Shown: piece by piece, positions 16,923 through 48,940 of the stretch
How the letters are laid out: each line of letters starts with the position of its first letter
Numbering within the stretch: position 1 is the first letter of the stretch
From: an uncultured delta proteobacterium
GTDB lineage: Bacteria > Desulfobacterota > Syntrophobacteria > BM002
Assembly: GCA_963712115.1 (NCBI GenBank)
Contig: CAVQGX010000031.1
Location: 128,001 to 192,000, forward strand
Length of the DNA stretch: 64,000 bases
Reading direction: 5' to 3'
Notes under the pieces: model-generated
Database searches by the model: none
What the model saw: the letters and a program-made list of their open reading frames with translations, nothing else
Told to the model about the DNA's origin: nothing
Made by a program: the position numbers and the translations under genes

Positions 16923-17024
16923 GTTCTACTATACAGTCTACTATATCACTTTTATCTCTCGCAGAGTTCACAGAGCCACAGAGTCTAAATCTCGAAGTAA
17001 GAGGAGACAGTGGTCGACACGGTA

Positions 17025-17159
17025 GGATCACTCAAAGGCTTAGTGAGAATCCCTTGTGGCTTGGAATAAGCAAATTTATCCCATTCCACAAGGGATCCCC
17101 ACAACTACCGATGCGTTCGCATCGGTAGCCCCTGCTGCGCAGGGAACTTTGATCGATTT
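17025..17159 (+). ncRNA. ~135-nt four-way-junction structure upstream of GxxExxY (copy A)
   Basis: Outer stem GATC..CAAAG/CTTTG..GATT; CCCTTGTGG/CCACAAGGG; CTACCGATGC-GTTC-GCATCGGTAG; CCCTG-CTGCG-CAGGG. Confidence 0.6.
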
Positions 17160-17223
17160 AGGGCGCACGCTATATTATTTTTTGGGAGCTCACCGAGGAT
17201 TCTGGAGAGCACAGGGGGCACAT

Positions 17224-17601
17224 ATGGAACTGAACCAGTTGTCGTCAAAAACCATCCAAGCTGCTATAGCAGTGCATAAGGAACTTGGACCAGGTTTACT
17301 GGAGTCTGTCTATCAAGCGTGCATGCTGATAGAACTGGAGAATATGGGGATTGAAGTCGAGTCCGAAGTTTATTTACCAATTATTTACCGCGGTAAGACG
17401 ATAGAAGGCCAAGCATTCCGTTTGGATCTCGTGGTAGAGGAAAAGGTTGTCTTGGAATTAAAATCAGTAAATAAAGTGGAACCAGTACACAAGAAACAGC
17501 TTCTAACCTATTTGCGTTTAGCAAACAAGCCACTTGGGTTGTTGATAAATTTTAACGAGCCTTTGCTAAAAGAAGGGATTACAAGAATAATCAATACCTA
17601 G
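17224..17601 (+). CDS. GxxExxY protein (PD-(D/E)XK nuclease-like)
   Basis: VHKELGPGLLESVY, RLDLVVE, ELKSV, QLLTYL, GLLINFN. Confidence 0.93.
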   Translation: MELNQLSSKTIQAAIAVHKELGPGLLESVYQACMLIELENMGIEVESEVYLPIIYRGKTIEGQAFRLDLVVEEKVVLELKSVNKVEPVHKKQLLTYLRLANKPLGLLINFNEPLLKEGITRIINT

Positions 17602-17739
17602 GATTGAACCTACTAGGCGGTCATACGGTTAATATATCACTCAGAGAACTCTCTTGAACTCTGTGGGCTCTAGCGAGTGGAACGAGCGGGCGAGAGATAT
17701 ATAAATCCCAAACTAATTAAGACAGGTTGATCTAGTATT

Positions 17740-34435: not shown

Positions 34436-34541
34436 CTCTGAGGCATTAACCCGCCTAGATACTTCTATAGCTCTCACAGAGACCACAGAGTACTCAGAGA
34501 ACTAAAACCAGTCAGAATGAGGGACAGCAGTGATTAGGTAG

Positions 34542-34675
34542 GGATCGCTCAAAAGCTCATTGGAGATCCCTTGAAGACTAGAATAAACAAGCCCATTCTC
34601 GTCCTCAAGGTATCTCCAATGGTACGATGCATTCGCATCAGCAGCCCCTGCTGCACAGGGGACTTTGAGCGATCC
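34542..34675 (+). ncRNA. ~135-nt four-way-junction structure (upstream type, copy B)
   Basis: GGATCGCTCAAA/TTTGAGCGATCC; CATTGGAGAT/ATCTCCAATG; GATGC-ATTC-GCATC; CCCCTG-CTGCA-CAGGGG. Confidence 0.65.
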
Positions 34676-34897
34676 AGGCGCACACCATAATATTTTTTTG
34701 GGGAGCTCACCGAGGATTTTAGAGACCACAGGGGACGGTCGGAACTTTCCTGAAAGACTGGATTACTAGGATAATCATTGCCCCGAAGGTAACCGACTAG
34801 ATTATTACACTATTGATCTATCGCTTAGAGGGCTCAATGAAACTCTGAGGTCTCGTACATCAAGTCGGATGAAGGTCGAGTTACTCATAGAGAGAAC

Positions 34898-35032
34898 GGA
34901 GCGCTTATAGGCAAAGTGGGGAGGGCTGGATGTCCGGAATGAGCTTGCTTGTTCTGGACATCAAGGTCTCCCCACGTGTCCCGACGCTGTAGCGTCGGGA
35001 CCGCCCGCTTTGCGGGTGCCGATAAACGATCC
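34898..35032 (+). ncRNA. ~135-nt four-way-junction structure (downstream type, copy B)
   Basis: GTGGGGAG/CTCCCCAC with GATGTCCGG/CTGGACATC; GTCCCGACGCT/AGCGTCGGGAC; CCCGC-TTT-GCGGG; homologous to 47596-47730. Confidence 0.6.
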
Positions 35033-35127
35033 CAACACTTTCACCTGCACAGTTTTCTCTGCGTTCTCTGTGGGCTCTAGCGAGCCCTGAGCCTGCCGAA
35101 GGGGGAGCGGGCGAGAGCTCAACAGCT

Positions 35128-39770: not shown

Positions 39771-40199
39771 ACCACGAAGATCACGAAGACAGAAGCCGTT
39801 ATAATACCATTCGTTTAATTCCATGTTTCATGTACTTCACATTAAAATTCATCAAAAGCCCGATTGATATACCAGACAACTTCATATATGTAAGTAACTG
39901 GGCTTGGTGAACTGGCAGAACTTTATCCACGCTCTTAAGTTCAACTATAATGGTTTTGTCTATAAACAAGTCGACACGATAACCGCAGTCGAGCTTTATA
40001 CCCTTGTATTCTACAGGCAAAGGGTGTTGTAGTTTGAACGGTATCCCCGCATTTGTCAGCTCATGAGCAAGGCACTGCTCATACGTGGATTCAAGTAATC
40101 CAGGGGCCAGATGCCTATGGACCTCTAGAGCACAGCCAATAACTTGGTTTGACAGTTTATCGAACTTCATTCTTCGTGCCCCTTCGTGTCCTTCGTGGT
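39771..40199 (-). mobile_element. minimal GxxExxY cassette with 9-bp-period inverted repeats, inserted in the RND operon
   Basis: ACCACGAAGATCACGAAG (39771-39788) and CTTCGTGTCCTTCGTGGT (40182-40199) are 16/18 inverted matches flanking the gene. Confidence 0.7.
39799..40170 (-). CDS. GxxExxY protein
   Basis: VHRHLAPGLLESTY, YRVDLFI, VELKSV, QLLTYM, GLLMNFN. Confidence 0.93.
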   Translation of the reverse strand: MKFDKLSNQVIGCALEVHRHLAPGLLESTYEQCLAHELTNAGIPFKLQHPLPVEYKGIKLDCGYRVDLFIDKTIIVELKSVDKVLPVHQAQLLTYMKLSGISIGLLMNFNVKYMKHGIKRMVL

Positions 40200-44016: not shown

Positions 44017-46299
44017 TCAATAGGAGAAAAATCCAATCGTTAAATAAAAGCTTAATCGAAAAAAAGATCCAAGTGTAGATCTTGGTGGAGAATTTATATT
44101 AAAAAAGAACGGAGTATCTGTGTTGCTTTTAAAACCGCTTCCCTCTATTTTGATAGAAGGGTCCTTATTTTGAACAAAAATAGGGGCCGCCAAAAGAATG
44201 AACAAGGGAAGAATCCAGACTGCCTTCAAGGCGGCTCCCACCTCCTTCGAGGATCCCCTTCCAAAAAACCTCAAGAATGAACTCACGGCAACAAAGGCCA
44301 GAATCCAGCCGTAGTAAGAGGCCAATTTAGTATTCCTCTCTAGAGCAGGAAAGATGGAATTCTCTATTAGAGGATGAAGCAGTTGGGCAACTTTTCCCTC
44401 TAGCAGGGAATAGCTGAGCAGGTAAACCCCACTCAGTGATAAGGCAAGGACACCGTATACGGCTAAGCCGCGGAACCGATCTGACGATAGGGATGTTTCG
44501 CTTTTTAGCTGTGCAGTGGAGAATAAGGCGCAGATGAAGAATATGCACAGGTGACAAGCGAAGACGGCAGAAAGAATTCCGGGCTTGGTTTTAGAGAAAC
44601 ATAGGTAATCAAAAGTTACCGTAGAGATAACCAGTCCGGCTAAGAAGGCAGGGATAACAATGGAAGGAGAAAAGGCTGACTTCTGCCCTGTCAGGCCTGC
44701 GGGGACACTGTAACTCACATCGGCACTTTTGCCAGCGGCAATAGTGAGAGCCGCGAAAGCCCAGAAATAAAGCTTGGTAGCGGTAATACTGAAAGAAAGC
44801 TGGATTTCAACGAAGTGACCAACAAGACCAGCCAGAAGAATACAGAGAAGCAGACCGTTGGGATGCAAGGAACAAAATGGTTTTCTTGTCATTGCCAGGG
44901 AAAAGTAAAAAAGATACGAAAATAACCCAAAAATCAAACCAAGCCCTAACCCGAGAGCAAAGAAGGTGACATTTCCACTTGCAAGGTAAAGGATTAGCAC
45001 ACCCAAAATACCACCCAGAGACAAAAGCCCATAAAATGCTATGTCTTGCTTCGTCGAGCGGATAAATCCCAGTTGCCGCAGAACAAAGCGACTGAGTAAA
45101 AAGAAAAAGAAGACAAAAGCGGCCAATCCCAAAACGCCCTGCGTTGCCAACAGATCCAAGATCTCGTTGTGAGCGCGATCCACAATGGCCGTTGGTTTCT
45201 CGATATATTGCAGAATCGGCGGATTATGCCTTGGATAAACGAGGGATAAGGTTTCGGGACCGTATCCTGTCAAGAGTCTTATGGGGTCTGATGCTATCAA
45301 TCCGCACACGCCCTTCCATATAGTTGCTCTGACAAGTCCAGTGCCGGACTGGAAAGCGCTTTCTGGTCCGAACCATTGGCTCACTAGCGAAACCTCAGCA
45401 AACGGTTGATCGAGGAGATTCACAAGCAGGAGCAGGCCCAGAAAAACCCCGCCACCGACGAAAAATGCTGATACTATTCTTGCACGTCCACGCCGCAATA
45501 ACTCTAAGGCTGCGAATAAAACCAGTCCTACCATCAAGCCCACAATGGGACCGCGGCTTTGAGCAAAACCGATGGCCGTAAGATTCAGCACAAGAAAAAG
45601 TAGCATCAATCCAAAAAAGACTTGTTCGGTGCCGGTGTTCTTCAGAGAGATTCCTTGTCGGCGGTATTGCCGCAATCTTTTGAAAGATTCGCCAAAAAAA
45701 TAGAAGTGGAGAGGCGTGGTCATGATCAGAAAGGCGGAAAGAAAAATCGGGTTTCCAAGGGTGCTCCAAACCCTCCTGTCCGAGAAAGGTGCGATCCTAA
45801 CATGGGGGTCAATGCCTAACCGTTGCAGGATAGCCCATACGGCGACGGTGAAACTAGTCAACAACATTGTAAAGATGAGGCGGTCTATCTGTCTCCGGCT
45901 GTGAGTCGTGTTGAGAATGACAAAGAAGAAATAGAGGTAGCAAAGACTGGTGTAAGTTCCTTGGCGACGGAGGTACATCCCGAGAAAGGAGCCAGATGGA
46001 AAGACGCTGAAAACAGTCGAAATTATTAAAGCATACGCGATAATGAGCACTGGCACGGCCAGACCCGGATGCCACACACTGACATTTTTTGATTGTTCAT
46101 TCTTACTGCGTTTTTCTTCAACCAACACAAATATCAGGAAGGGCAGAGATAAGATCGCGATCGAGCGCAGCAACAGTACCTTGGCTTCTTCGAAGGGAAG
46201 GGCGCTGTAAGGGTTGGTAAATAAAGGCGCAATAACAAGTGCTGAAAGAACGAAAAACTCAAGAACGTTCTCTGCGAGTTGAAGCTTCCTGTCCGGCAT
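44017..46299 (-). CDS. O-antigen ligase (Wzy_C) family polytopic membrane protein, probably C-terminally truncated
   Basis: STLGNPIF, QSRG, R..IW, GYGPET, DRAHNEILD, GLVGHFVE motifs. Confidence 0.8.
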   Translation of the reverse strand: MPDRKLQLAENVLEFFVLSALVIAPLFTNPYSALPFEEAKVLLLRSIAILSLPFLIFVLVEEKRSKNEQSKNVSVWHPGLAVPVLIIAYALIISTVFSVFPSGSFLGMYLRRQGTYTSLCYLYFFFVILNTTHSRRQIDRLIFTMLLTSFTVAVWAILQRLGIDPHVRIAPFSDRRVWSTLGNPIFLSAFLIMTTPLHFYFFGESFKRLRQYRRQGISLKNTGTEQVFFGLMLLFLVLNLTAIGFAQSRGPIVGLMVGLVLFAALELLRRGRARIVSAFFVGGGVFLGLLLLVNLLDQPFAEVSLVSQWFGPESAFQSGTGLVRATIWKGVCGLIASDPIRLLTGYGPETLSLVYPRHNPPILQYIEKPTAIVDRAHNEILDLLATQGVLGLAAFVFFFFLLSRFVLRQLGFIRSTKQDIAFYGLLSLGGILGVLILYLASGNVTFFALGLGLGLIFGLFSYLFYFSLAMTRKPFCSLHPNGLLLCILLAGLVGHFVEIQLSFSITATKLYFWAFAALTIAAGKSADVSYSVPAGLTGQKSAFSPSIVIPAFLAGLVISTVTFDYLCFSKTKPGILSAVFACHLCIFFICALFSTAQLKSETSLSSDRFRGLAVYGVLALSLSGVYLLSYSLLEGKVAQLLHPLIENSIFPALERNTKLASYYGWILAFVAVSSFLRFFGRGSSKEVGAALKAVWILPLFILLAAPIFVQNKDPSIKIEGSGFKSNTDTPFFFNINSPPRSTLGSFFRLSFYLTIGFFSY

Positions 46300-46620
46300 A
46301 TTCCTCAATCATCCTACAATACTTGGACTCTATTGGGTCTCATGCTAAGCTACTTTACTGGATGCTAAACATATTAGAATCTCAGTCTTCTAACGAGTAT
46401 GTGTGGCCGGAGAATCTGAGCATATGAAACACATTAAGAGGACAAATGTAAAGAATTATTGTGTTTTAATATAACGCGGCTTTACGCGGAGATAGTGCAT
46501 CGCAAGGGTACGTGTTCTCATCGCCGGATTGAATCGTATTGCTTTTACAACTGACTCCCTCCATCTTGATAAAAGGGTGCAGTTAGCCAAAAGGGTACTG
46601 ATGAGAGATGGCAAAGCAGG

Positions 46621-46803
46621 GTGAAGGCCAAAAAGAGTGGCAGGCTCAGGTGGAGGCCGTTTGCTGGTCAGGGGCGAATCTATGTCGGCACCCTGGAGGG
46701 AAAGCTCGTTTGCTTGAGACTAAAAACAGAACTGGACGAACAAGGAGCCACACAGGTTCTCAAGGAGTTTCTCGACCCTGAACCGGAACAGGAATCCGAA
46801 TAG
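46621..46803 (+). pseudogene. possible C-terminal remnant of a PQQ-like beta-propeller protein
   Basis: GRIYVGTLEGKLVCL resembles a terminal PQQ-repeat blade. Confidence 0.35.
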
Positions 46804-46904
46804 TTATTCAGACTCTTAGTTAAATGCATATATCTCTCACAGAGCTCACAGAGTTCTCAGAGTCCTGACGCACATCAAATAAAAAAATTTAAAGGAAACA
46901 TTGA

Positions 46905-47040
46905 AAGATCACTGATAGCTAAACGGGGATACCTTGAGGACCGGCACAAGCGAGCTTATACCCTCCCACAAGGTATCCCCGCATCTACCGATGCATTCGC
47001 ATCGGTAGGTCCTGCAGCGCATGAGACTTTCAGCGATCTT
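46905..47040 (+). ncRNA. ~135-nt four-way-junction structure (upstream type, copy C)
   Basis: AAGATCACTGA/TCAGCGATCTT; CGGGGATACCTTG/CAAGGTATCCCCG; CTACCGATGC-ATTC-GCATCGGTAG; third short stem. Confidence 0.65.
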
Positions 47041-47103
47041 GGTGCACACTTCATTGGTTTTTTGGGAGCTCACGGAGGATTAAGAAGATCACAGGGGGCG
47101 CAC

Positions 47104-47496
47104 ATGGATTTAAACCAACTATCCTCACAAATCATCCAAGCTGCTACAGCAGTTCATAAAGAGCTTGGCCCTGGCCTGCTGGAATCTGTCTACCAAGCAT
47201 GCATTACGATTGAACTTGAAAAAATGGGGATAGAGTTCAAAGCTGAGGCTTCCCTGCCTATCTCTTACCGCGGCAAGAAATTAGATAAGCTGTTATTCCG
47301 CTTGGATCTACTGGTAGAAGACACGGTTATTGTGGAATTGAAATCAGTAGAAAAAGTGGAACCAGTGCATAAGAAACAGCTTCTCACCTATTTACGTCTG
47401 GCGCAGAAGCCACTTGGTCTGTTGATAAATTTCAACGAGTCTTTACTGAAGGACGGGATCACTAGAATAATCAACACCCCAGAGAGAAACGAATAA
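47104..47496 (+). CDS. GxxExxY protein
   Basis: VHKELGPGLLESVY, RLDLLVE, VELKSV, QLLTYL; close paralog of 17224-17601. Confidence 0.93.
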   Translation: MDLNQLSSQIIQAATAVHKELGPGLLESVYQACITIELEKMGIEFKAEASLPISYRGKKLDKLLFRLDLLVEDTVIVELKSVEKVEPVHKKQLLTYLRLAQKPLGLLINFNESLLKDGITRIINTPERNE

Positions 47497-47595
47497 GAGT
47501 CGTCGGGTGCGACGTGATCACTCAGTGGACTCAAAAAAATTCTGGGAGCTCTTAATCCAACAAGACGAGTGAGAGGAGTAGAGATTCCTCAGGAA

Positions 47596-47730
47596 GGATC
47601 GCCTAGAGGCCAAGTGGGCAGCGCTTGGAGGACAGTAATAAGCTTGCTTATTCTGGCCACCAAGAGCTGTCCACTGTCACGATGCGTCAGCATCGGGGCC
47701 GTCCACTGTGCGGCAGTCTCTAGGCGATCC
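47596..47730 (+). ncRNA. ~135-nt four-way-junction structure (downstream type, copy C)
   Basis: GGATCGCCTAGAG/CTCTAGGCGATCC perfect 13-bp outer stem; GTGGGCAGC/GCTGTCCAC; AATAAGC-TT-GCTTATT; CGATGC-GTCA-GCATCG. Confidence 0.6.
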
Positions 47731-47833
47731 CGATACTTTGACCGACACATATTTCTCTGCGTTCTCTGTGAGCTCTAGCGAACCCTGAGCTTCGGCGAAG
47801 GGTGAGCGGGCGAGAGATCTATCAATTGAAATA

Positions 47834-48628
47834 TTACTTGTACTGGAACTCGGGTTTGCGCTTCTCTAAGAAGGCAGTAACCCCTTCCATGGCATCCGCT
47901 GTATCTGCTGCCAGGCCAAGCAAATTGGCTTCCTTACTCAACGCCTCTCTTTGAGACATCTCTAACCCTTGCAAGACTGCGTCTAAGCACAACCGCACCG
48001 CCTCCGACGATTTCTCTGCCAGCTTTTGCGCCAATTGCTCGGCAGTTTGCATTAGTTCAGACAGGGGTACCACAGCATTCACCAAACCAATTCTGTGTGC
48101 TTCGTGGGCATCAACCATCTCTCCTGTCAAGATCATCTCGAGAGCCTTTCTTTTGCCCACCTGGCGGGGCAAGCGCACAGTTCCGCCCCAACAGGGATTG
48201 AAGGCTAAGTTAATTTCCGGCTGGCCTATATGGGCGTTCTCAGCGGCAATTGCCATGTGGCAGGCCTGAATGATTTCCGAGCCTCCTCCCAGAGCATAGC
48301 CGTTAACCGCAGCAATAACAGGTTTTCCCAACCGCTCAATAGTGGTGGTCAGCCCTTGCCCTGGCAACGAGAATTCCTCTCTAGCGGCCATTGGTCCCTT
48401 GGTGAAACTAGCCTTGATCTCCTTTATATCTGCACCGGCAATGAAAGCCTTTTCTCCGCTTCCTGTGATAATTACCACCCTGACTGAGCCGTCGCTTTTT
48501 GCCTCCTTCAAAGCATGGCTCAATTCCTTGACAGTATCTGCATTAAGAGCATTCATTACCTTTGGTCGATTTATTGTGATTTTTGCGATCCCATCCGCCT
48601 TTTCATAAATGATATTAGCGTACTCCAT
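47834..48628 (-). CDS. enoyl-CoA hydratase/crotonase
   Basis: INRPKVMNAL, AFIAGADI, NGYALGGG.E, GQPEINL, FLEKRKP. Confidence 0.93.
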   Translation of the reverse strand: MEYANIIYEKADGIAKITINRPKVMNALNADTVKELSHALKEAKSDGSVRVVIITGSGEKAFIAGADIKEIKASFTKGPMAAREEFSLPGQGLTTTIERLGKPVIAAVNGYALGGGSEIIQACHMAIAAENAHIGQPEINLAFNPCWGGTVRLPRQVGKRKALEMILTGEMVDAHEAHRIGLVNAVVPLSELMQTAEQLAQKLAEKSSEAVRLCLDAVLQGLEMSQREALSKEANLLGLAADTADAMEGVTAFLEKRKPEFQYK

Positions 48629-48724
48629 ACTTACCTCCCCTTTCAGTTAGACCATTCAAACATATTAAGTCTAAGCTACTCAGTTTGCCCTTTCAATCCA
48701 TAGTAAGTAATTGTTACAGGTTTT

Positions 48725-48940
48725 GGTAGCCAGTAGTCGGTAAGATAGCATGGGGCATGGAGTAAGTAGTCAGAGGTCAGAAGTCAGAGGTCAGAAGTCG
48801 AAATTAAGAACCCAAAATCCGGTATCCCTGATCTTTTGTCCTCTGATCTCCGACCTCTGATTTCTCAGCGCCTTGGTGCCTAGTGCTTACTGCTTAGTGC
48901 CTAGTTGAAATTGGCTGCATACTGTTAGCTGTGAGCTAGC
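48725..48940. repeat. 7-bp-period inverted-repeat tract
   Basis: GTCAGAGGTCAGAAGTCAGAGGTCAGAAGTC ... CCTCTGATCTCCGACCTCTGA plus TAGTGC units; related tract at ~63100-63200. Confidence 0.7.

Follow-up and report, generated by a model that had tools for sequence, protein, structure and literature searches.

A covarying four-way-junction element of an uncultured delta proteobacterium, in part associated with genes of the GxxExxY family: probable core of a group of palindromic mosaic repeats specific to one lineage

What is the fold of about 135 nt that recurs beside genes of the GxxExxY family in a stretch of 64,000 nt from an uncultured delta proteobacterium (assembly GCA_963712115.1, contig CAVQGX010000031.1, positions 128,001 to 192,000; GTDB lineage Desulfobacterota, Syntrophobacteria, BM002)? 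In the first-pass annotation of this stretch, hereafter called the window, either an undescribed non-coding RNA (ncRNA) motif or single-stranded DNA recognition sites bracketing the nuclease gene were proposed from the letters of the window. The analysis reported here leads to another answer, namely that the four-way junction (4WJ) is probably the central module of a lineage-specific mosaic family of palindromic repeated DNA, comparable in kind to the repetitive extragenic palindromes (REP) and bacterial interspersed mosaic elements (BIME) or to the miniature inverted-repeat transposable elements (MITEs). Multi-copy spread within one lineage, presence and absence at orthologous loci, an amplified deletion derivative, nesting in inverted arms and preserved pairing were all observed, and on this evidence the element appears to be a structured selfish repeat of a new kind, not an ordinary RNA gene.

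The five copies in the window have a common 4WJ, composed of a closing stem (P1), a long interrupted stem (P2), a third stem (P3) and a short fourth stem (P4). Folding of each copy alone gave free energies of -60.5 to -84.7 kcal/mol compared to about -33 to -48 kcal/mol for dinucleotide shuffles, with z-scores of -7.25 to -9.36 and none of 200 shuffles equally stable; the shared shape noticed in the first-pass annotation is thereby borne out in all five copies, and the stem variants quoted there, including the exceptional P3, are readable in the sequence and in the folds. The positions given for the copies hold on the + strand apart from the one at 46905-47040, which was drawn one base too wide at each end and runs from 46906 to 47039. 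The reverse complements of the copies fold with similar stability (z-scores of -7.9 to -9.8).

Two covariance models were used for searching. The first one was trained on the five window copies and was run on the 4.9-Mb draft genome from which the window comes (the source genome, G000 in coordinates below); within the window it matched these five copies only. The second one was trained on 28 copies of the source genome and was run on relatives and on the phylum.

Pairing is clearly maintained in the 4WJ. Among the 28 copies of the source genome, 88.2% of the alignment cells hold standard pairs compared to 38.5-46.3% when the 3′ partners are slid by 1-3 columns, and two-sided changes are present in 46 of the 54 pairs; the observed values were reached by none of 500 shuffles. 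When the copies of relatives were included (104 copies, 103 of them distinct), 89.8% of the cells were paired, compared to 38.7-45.7% after sliding, and two-sided changes were counted in 49 of the 54 pairs and in 749 cells, although the alignments used for these counts were fitted to the structure of the model and lean to pairing for that reason. A structure-blind MAFFT alignment of 29 copies showed two-sided changes in 28 of 38 predicted pairs. The compensatory changes reported from the five copies are real, far above chance and sustained in the enlarged alignment. The information content amounts to 1.10 bits in paired columns and to 0.65 bits in unpaired ones. The P1 consensus is GGATCGCTTAAAG / CTTTAAGCGATCC, and the stem words GATCGC, CCGAT/ATCGG, CC-GC/GC-GG and AAGC/GCTT are more than 90% conserved. 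Conservation is lowest in loops and junctions, which vary in sequence and length. This pattern resembles protein-recognised palindromes more closely than catalytic or ligand-binding RNA.

No described RNA family matches the fold. The comparison with Rfam 15, which had been suggested along with the original observation, gave no match at gathering thresholds in the whole window, and an E-value scan of 14 loci returned only chance sub-threshold matches of hairpin type (microRNA, CRISPR repeat and internal ribosome entry site). Genes for transfer RNA or transfer-messenger RNA were not found in the window by ARAGORN.

In the source genome the first model detected 29 full-length copies and 4 truncated ones, scattered in both orientations and each with arms of its own. 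As the element is close to a palindrome, many of them gave a weak extra match on the other strand. With the second model the 4WJ was found in 16 of the 17 other genomes of the genus (1-40 matches each, both strands counted), and therefore in 17 of 18 together with the source genome, the number of matches among congeners ranging from 0 to about 40. It was also found in two of four other genera of the family and in none of 19 genomes that represent five further families of the class. From 150 further genomes sampled evenly over the phylum, one congener and one distant weak match of 40.7 bits were obtained, the latter with the same four-helix arrangement and other stem sequences. This weak match is the single one outside the family among about 165 other genomes of the phylum. 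The genomes used for the distribution are samples and many are incomplete, therefore absence means only that the element was not found in those searched. Additionally, the exact pattern of the P1 ends was scanned for in the genomes of 185,579 species; of the 80 matches listed out of 120, four were real according to the covariance model, located in records of uncultured Desulfobacteraceae and uncultured Syntrophobacterales, and the others were due to chance.

The density of copies and the state of P2 differ within the source genome. One region of 50 kb (G000:C14:33000-83000) holds 11 copies in both orientations with few long open reading frames (ORFs) between them. P2 is hypervariable from copy to copy, and variants of 80-90 nt that keep P1, P3 and P4 and have no P2 were seen at G000:C52:3574-3663, C59:12637-12716 and C14:33182-33271. 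A P2 loss of like kind occurs at an orthologous locus in a relative (L188).

Every copy is nested in a larger palindromic unit. The commonest unit has a length of about 290-350 bp and consists of a left arm, a spacer of about 45 nt, the 4WJ, a spacer of about 25 nt and an inverted right arm. The left arm begins with ATCTCTCACAGAG and contains two or three CACAGAG-type words at a spacing of 9-10 nt; the right arm comprises CTCTGAG-type words, CTCGAG/CTCTAGCGA and a small hairpin and ends with GCGGGCGAGAGAT. The ends of the unit are terminal inverted repeats, ATCTCTC.. on the left and ..GAGAGAT on the right. At least one 4WJ is present in nine of the ten paired CACAGAG-arm elements of the source genome, the tenth being an arms-only element of 68 nt. 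Eleven copies on one contig have arms of other words (CCGCAGAC, CACGAAG, CACGGAT and ACAGGAT types), often in several layers, and all arm repeats within one element are of one variant. Most copies of the source genome stand solo within their own inverted-repeat arms, single units being the commonest form. The types called "upstream" (U) and "downstream" (D) in the first-pass annotation each represent a complete unit, and the two units flank the nuclease gene in direct order, the D unit with its own left-arm-like segment and the U unit with a short right-arm-like segment before the leader of the gene (Table 1). Seven U-type copies are present in the source genome; an intact gene follows two of them (17224-17601 and 47104-47496), and the other five are followed by an ORF-less spacer or, in one case, by a truncated downstream copy.

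In order to follow the element at orthologous positions, three loci were compared in up to five relatives. The window locus, between a gene ending at 46803 and a converging gene ending at 47834, holds a composite of about 1 kb. Two relatives with flanks 88-89% identical have no composite there and instead show spacers of 95 and 184 nt composed of different short repeats; in a third relative the place is taken by a single unit with exactly the same boundaries. At the second locus, both arms are present without the core of about 196 nt in one relative, the 4WJ of another lacks P2 (a gap of 59 nt), and two more carry unrelated repeats. At the third locus only the outermost bases of the element are left in a relative, joined at a CTCT microhomology. 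Moreover, ORF-less U-D composites of two genomes have the same deletion breakpoints in six of eight compared, where the leader runs directly into the final ~50 nt of the gene, and have diverged considerably since. This is the pattern to be expected from a single deletion derivative that was later multiplied.

Both window ORFs accompanied by a 4WJ are clear members of the GxxExxY family (TIGR04256 with 146.5 and 145.2 bits at a cut-off of 35; PF13366 with 142 bits at a cut-off of 22). An alignment of 35 sequences shows no variation at the residues D68, E78 and K80 (D...ExK) or at G24, E27 and Y30, and the encoded proteins are candidate PD-(D/E)XK nucleases. The statement that the fold lies on both sides of GxxExxY is true for one sub-family and is no general rule: in the window a single intact gene is bracketed (47104-47496), the segment 34676-34897 between two copies contains a gene remnant only, and the gene at 17224-17601 has a copy upstream only. 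Single-strand recognition sites around the gene may exist in the bracketing sub-family; integron attC sites, the closest known case of this idea, are rejected below. A device specific to the nuclease gene is contradicted by the counts in the source genome, i.e. 29 full-length copies against five GxxExxY genes, three of which are without any 4WJ (39805-40155 of the window on the - strand, G000:C31:229313-229663 and G000:C46:9413-9763). These three genes have three direct short repeats (CACGAAG- or CGCAGAG-type, spacing of about 10 nt) before the ATG and inverted copies just past the stop codon. Two of them are near-identical and located at different loci, and one lies inside a GGGTGGG/CCCACCC inverted repeat.

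A similar arrangement surrounds the genes of the four-helix-bundle family TIGR02436, which has a known link to intervening sequences of 23S rRNA. Fourteen matches to this family were found in the source genome (e.g. C46:138694, C30:124490, C18:8275 and C52:9176), and inverted short-repeat arms were present in eight of the eight inspected, with a different repeat word for each gene. A GGGGC(A/G)C-type leader before the ATG is common to TIGR02436 and GxxExxY genes. As the same arm build occurs around TIGR02436 genes and around GxxExxY genes without a 4WJ, the 4WJ units are part of a wider cassette system with inverted short-repeat arrays, in which one GxxExxY sub-clade has a 4WJ on both sides.

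The GxxExxY family comprises at least 8000 relatives at E <= 1e-10, mostly on contigs of about 1 kb. Eighty metagenome loci with relatives at 51-91% identity were analysed; the 4WJ was present at all five loci with at least 78% identity and at one with 74%, and was not found at the other 74 of the 80. Four of the six loci carry both U and D; of the remaining two, one contig ends before the position of D and in the other the 4WJ is a separate adjacent solo unit. Twelve of the 74 loci were viewed individually; in many of them, CACAGAG/GCGGGCGAGAGAT arms are combined with simple hairpins in the place of the 4WJ. Because arms and gene occur without the 4WJ in unrelated metagenome contigs, they are widespread, and the 4WJ is a central module particular to one clade and lineage. 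In the literature, supplements aside, no description of the 4WJ element, of the cassette repeat arms or of a structured non-coding module was found; the TIGR04256 and TIGR02436 cassettes are annotated only as protein families. An assigned function of GxxExxY was likewise not found in the literature, and in the single survey found to mention the family its Pfam status is "unknown" (PMC3424549).

Mobile repeated DNA is preferred to a discrete ncRNA gene because of the insertion polymorphism, the amplified deletion derivative, the conservation of stems and not of loops, and the lack of an overall excess of G-U over A-C mismatches. The full-size form would consist of two direct-order units around a gene for a GxxExxY PD-(D/E)XK nuclease of 125-130 amino acids (aa), and deletion of the gene would have produced a non-autonomous derivative which then multiplied. 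Pairing may be kept since the element must fold single-stranded, either as DNA in copying or cruciform extrusion or as part of a read-through transcript, and the conserved palindromic stem words (GATCGC, CCGAT, CC-GC and AAGC) may be protein recognition sites. The most likely mobilising or structure-cutting enzyme would be the GxxExxY nuclease acting in trans, and the copy downstream of the nuclease gene might additionally form a folded 3′ untranslated region (3′-UTR) of the nuclease mRNA.

Several points weigh against this reading. Only five GxxExxY genes, three of them without a 4WJ, are available for about 30 copies, and both transposition and the activity of the enzyme are predictions. Neither a target-site duplication nor a clean empty site was found at the orthologous loci compared, therefore insertion as the direction of events is inferred; the "empty" spacers hold other short repeats or look like internal microhomology deletions, and some of the polymorphisms could be due to deletion alone. 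Orthologous copies are retained between species with no more than ~78-83% identity in the flanking genes, and this retention could reflect a host function and not selfish persistence. In addition to the lean of the pair counts noted above, G-U and A-C mismatches stand at 44:8 in the D-type copies (at 19 vs 6 distinct positions), which points to a strand-specific constraint, possibly at the RNA level, in at least that sub-family.

The D-type excess hints at folding as the 3′-UTR RNA of the nuclease and is part of the case for a cis-acting UTR RNA. Read-through transcripts and the nuclease mRNA would then fold and serve as a 3′ end stabiliser, a processing site (e.g. for a double-strand RNase) or a bidirectional insulator, roles of a kind described for REP and ERIC elements, and the spread as DNA would be secondary. 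The retention of orthologous copies across species is compatible with such a role, and so is the good folding of both strands, which a bidirectional element needs. According to crude ORF calls (at least 150 aa), the copies lie close against gene ends, directly after stop codons; in 22 of 29 cases the right end is directed at a converging gene's 3′ end, in 15 of 29 the upstream gene runs into the element, and a divergent setting is seen in only 3 of 29. However, a clear excess of G-U is normal for an RNA transcribed from a single strand, and the helix mismatches are balanced overall (G-U:A-C of 59:72 in 28 copies and ~185:198 in the 103 copies), with an opposite bias in the U-type copies (20:48, at 15 vs 25 positions) and about even numbers in solo units. 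Since the members of a sub-family are related, their wobble counts are not independent, and a transcription-linked mutation bias could be the source of the pattern. Promoter-like and terminator-like signals near the copies are no commoner than in shuffles, and close relatives are without the element at the same loci. A cis-acting RNA is considered unlikely as the primary explanation. Very improbable is a class of undescribed, independently transcribed small RNAs that act in trans: the stable fold, the strong covariation and the lack of a matching family would suit it, and a sigma-70-like -35/-10 pair is readable at the 3′ edge of some copies, but no conserved promoter precedes the element, no terminator follows it, the wobble pairs lack an overall strand asymmetry, conservation is lowest in loops and junctions, P2 is hypervariable or missing, and the number of matches differs widely among congeners. 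In the favoured reading the 4WJ is not a free-standing RNA gene acting in trans. Of the ncRNA motif proposed in the first-pass annotation, the preserved pairing and the absence of a described family stand, while a discrete ncRNA gene fits less well than mobile DNA.

Two readings at the DNA level remain to be weighed against the mosaic repeat family. Quasi-palindrome correction is a known mutational mechanism, and the 4WJ might be a neutral by-product, three small palindromes inside a larger one, with nested palindromes kept perfect by template switching or hairpin mismatch correction. The hierarchical build with arms of different short repeats layered round a core, the single repeat variant in the arms of each element, the balance of G-U and A-C and the free variation of loops and junctions agree with such an origin, which is nevertheless improbable in view of the order and sizes of P1-P4, constant in 103 distinct copies from many genomes and in the distant relative with different stem sequences, and of the conservation of specific stem words, which argues for recognition. 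Integron attC sites, with the U-gene-D composite as a gene cassette, deserve next to no credence and are already contradicted. They share with the 4WJ a size of ~60-140 nt (here about 135 nt), an imperfectly palindromic form, folding as single strands, direct repeats around small ORFs and conservation of structure above sequence, and the source genome encodes the integron integrase intI (486.9 bits vs a cut-off of 265). The end boxes of attC sites are RYYYAAC / GTTRRRY, and no such boxes are present in P1; the cassette repeats beside intI, about 110 nt in length with CTAAC...GTTAGG-type end boxes, are unrelated to the 4WJ, and no 4WJ occurs in that array. Moreover, intI was found in 4 of the 18 genomes of the genus vs 17 of 18 for the 4WJ, whose copies are scattered in mixed orientations within their own arms, without array organisation or linkage to IntI. 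The integron itself is chromosomal (G000:C27:1-3300), with at least four of these cassette repeats upstream of intI and an array cut off by the contig end.

The mosaic repeat family favoured here is best compared with repeats of other bacteria. REP/BIME and REPIN-RAYT systems of enterobacteria and pseudomonads are short intergenic palindromes in tens to hundreds of copies, arranged as mosaic modules at gene ends; REP elements are often transcribed together with adjacent genes, and a dedicated single-copy enzyme presumably moves them in trans. The 4WJ units are likewise intergenic, palindromic and mosaic and lie at gene ends, as REP elements are described. In contrast, a REP unit is a single hairpin of ~35 nt and the 4WJ unit a 135-nt four-way junction inside repeat arms, and RAYT genes encode a Y1/HUH transposase whereas the gene associated with the 4WJ encodes a predicted PD-(D/E)XK nuclease. 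The flanks of the four Y1_Tnp genes of the source genome are unrelated to the 4WJ or its arms, unlike what a REPIN-RAYT system would show. Among the bacterial MITEs and mosaic repeats are ERIC (~127 bp), Correia and BOX elements. They resemble the 4WJ units in size class, in their terminal inverted repeats, in the non-autonomous derivatives that descend from a parent with a gene, in insertion polymorphism between relatives and in the folding of transcripts; terminal inverted repeats, presence/absence polymorphism and an amplified internal-deletion derivative were all found for the 4WJ units. The 4WJ units differ from MITEs in that neither a classical transposase parent nor, at the loci compared, a target-site duplication could be found, and from both MITEs and ERIC in that the core is a conserved multi-helix junction with heavy covariation and not one long hairpin. 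RNA derived from REP elements is the subject of a published study (PMC4550694).

With considerable reserve, a further-reaching and on balance doubtful version is put forward, in which 4WJ units, CACAGAG-type arms and the GxxExxY gene together would form an undescribed class of miniature mobile elements. The nuclease of ~125 aa would recognise the branched or hairpin DNA or RNA of its own element, new copies would insert at the tips of palindromes already present, and the onion-like layering of the repeats would thereby be accounted for, and the 4WJ would be the module for recognition and copying. If true, the same logic would apply to thousands of GxxExxY and four-helix-bundle cassettes across bacterial phyla. 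The 4WJ, being conserved, covarying and spread on its own, offers a concrete and testable substrate for one GxxExxY clade; if the nuclease acts on the junction, this would show how tiny cassettes and their arms move, and a structured, branched repeat would join the short list of bacterial repeat types. The repeats also matter in practice, as they break metagenome assemblies and can pass for ncRNA genes.

Table 1. Parts of the three composites in the window (positions of the window; bits are scores of profile or covariance-model matches).
Feature	Position	Strand	Evidence and remarks
Left arm, composite 1	16954..16983	+	ATCTCTCGCAGAG...
U-type 4WJ, composite 1	17025..17158	+	own fold; covariance model 129.9 bits
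GxxExxY nuclease gene (predicted), 125 aa	17224..17601	+	TIGR04256 and PF13366 profiles
D-unit arm-only remnant (left-arm-like segment and right arm)	17634..17698	+	end GCGGGCGAGAGAT; no 4WJ, no covariance-model match
Left arm, composite 2	34468..34502	+	sequence reading
U-type 4WJ, composite 2	34542..34675	+	own fold; covariance-model match
ORF-less derivative (leader and last ~50 nt of deleted GxxExxY gene)	34676..34897	+	shared breakpoints
D-type 4WJ, composite 2	34898..35032	+	own fold; covariance model 131.7 bits
Right spacer and right arm, composite 2	35033..35117	+	sequence reading
Left arm, composite 3	46832..46862	+	begins ATCTCTCACAGAG; three CACAGAG-type repeats ~9-10 nt apart; same arm before other copies
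U-type 4WJ, composite 3	46906..47039	+	own fold; 120.7 bits first model, 110 bits second model (R2)
Leader, U copy to start codon	47040..47103	+	T-run, right-arm-like GGGAGCTCAC-GAGGA motif, GGGGGCGCAC before ATG; leader alignment
GxxExxY PD-(D/E)XK nuclease gene (predicted), 130 aa	47104..47496	+	TIGR04256 146.5 bits; PF13366 142.2 bits
Left-arm-like segment of the D unit	47516..47552	+	ATCACTCAG...CTCTGGGAGCTC
D-type 4WJ, composite 3	47596..47730	+	fold -81.2 kcal/mol, z -8.77; covariance model 117.8 bits
Right spacer and right arm, composite 3	47731..47818	+	CTCTG-type repeats, CTCTAGCGA, small hairpin, end GCGGGCGAGAGAT

Some further observations concern transcription and P2. A sigma-70-like pair facing outwards (TTGAGC or TTAAGC, a 17-nt spacer, TAATAT or TACCAT) is readable in the P1 3′ strand and right spacer of many copies, for example at 34663-34697 of the window; the promoter scan listed it in one copy only. 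In four metatranscriptome contig sets compared with 45800-48900 of the window, the flanking genes were covered, apparently by strains with other spacer repeats, and no contig extended over 46944-47671. P2 was also considered as a guide to nearby DNA and rejected, since the 9-mers of own P2 found in the flanks of ±500 nt numbered 17 compared to ~26 expected from the P2 of other copies, and these matches came mainly from neighbouring 4WJ copies.

The start of the nuclease gene in composite 1 and the leaders of relatives were also inspected. In the ORF list the nuclease frame of composite 1 starts at a GTG 56 codons further upstream and crosses the 4WJ (17056-17601), and the ATG at 17224 is favoured as the start by the family match and by relatives. 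In one metagenome copy (L235:440-470) the leader of ~65 nt is missing between two GGCGCACA direct repeats, and the U 4WJ is located 9 nt from the start codon of the nuclease gene. The orthologous spacers L166 and L167 and many other flanks are crowded with short-period repeats (CATAGAG, AGTGCCT, GCTGTC and ATCCGAA types), and the spacer repeats of the genus often occur as inverted pairs with nothing between them.

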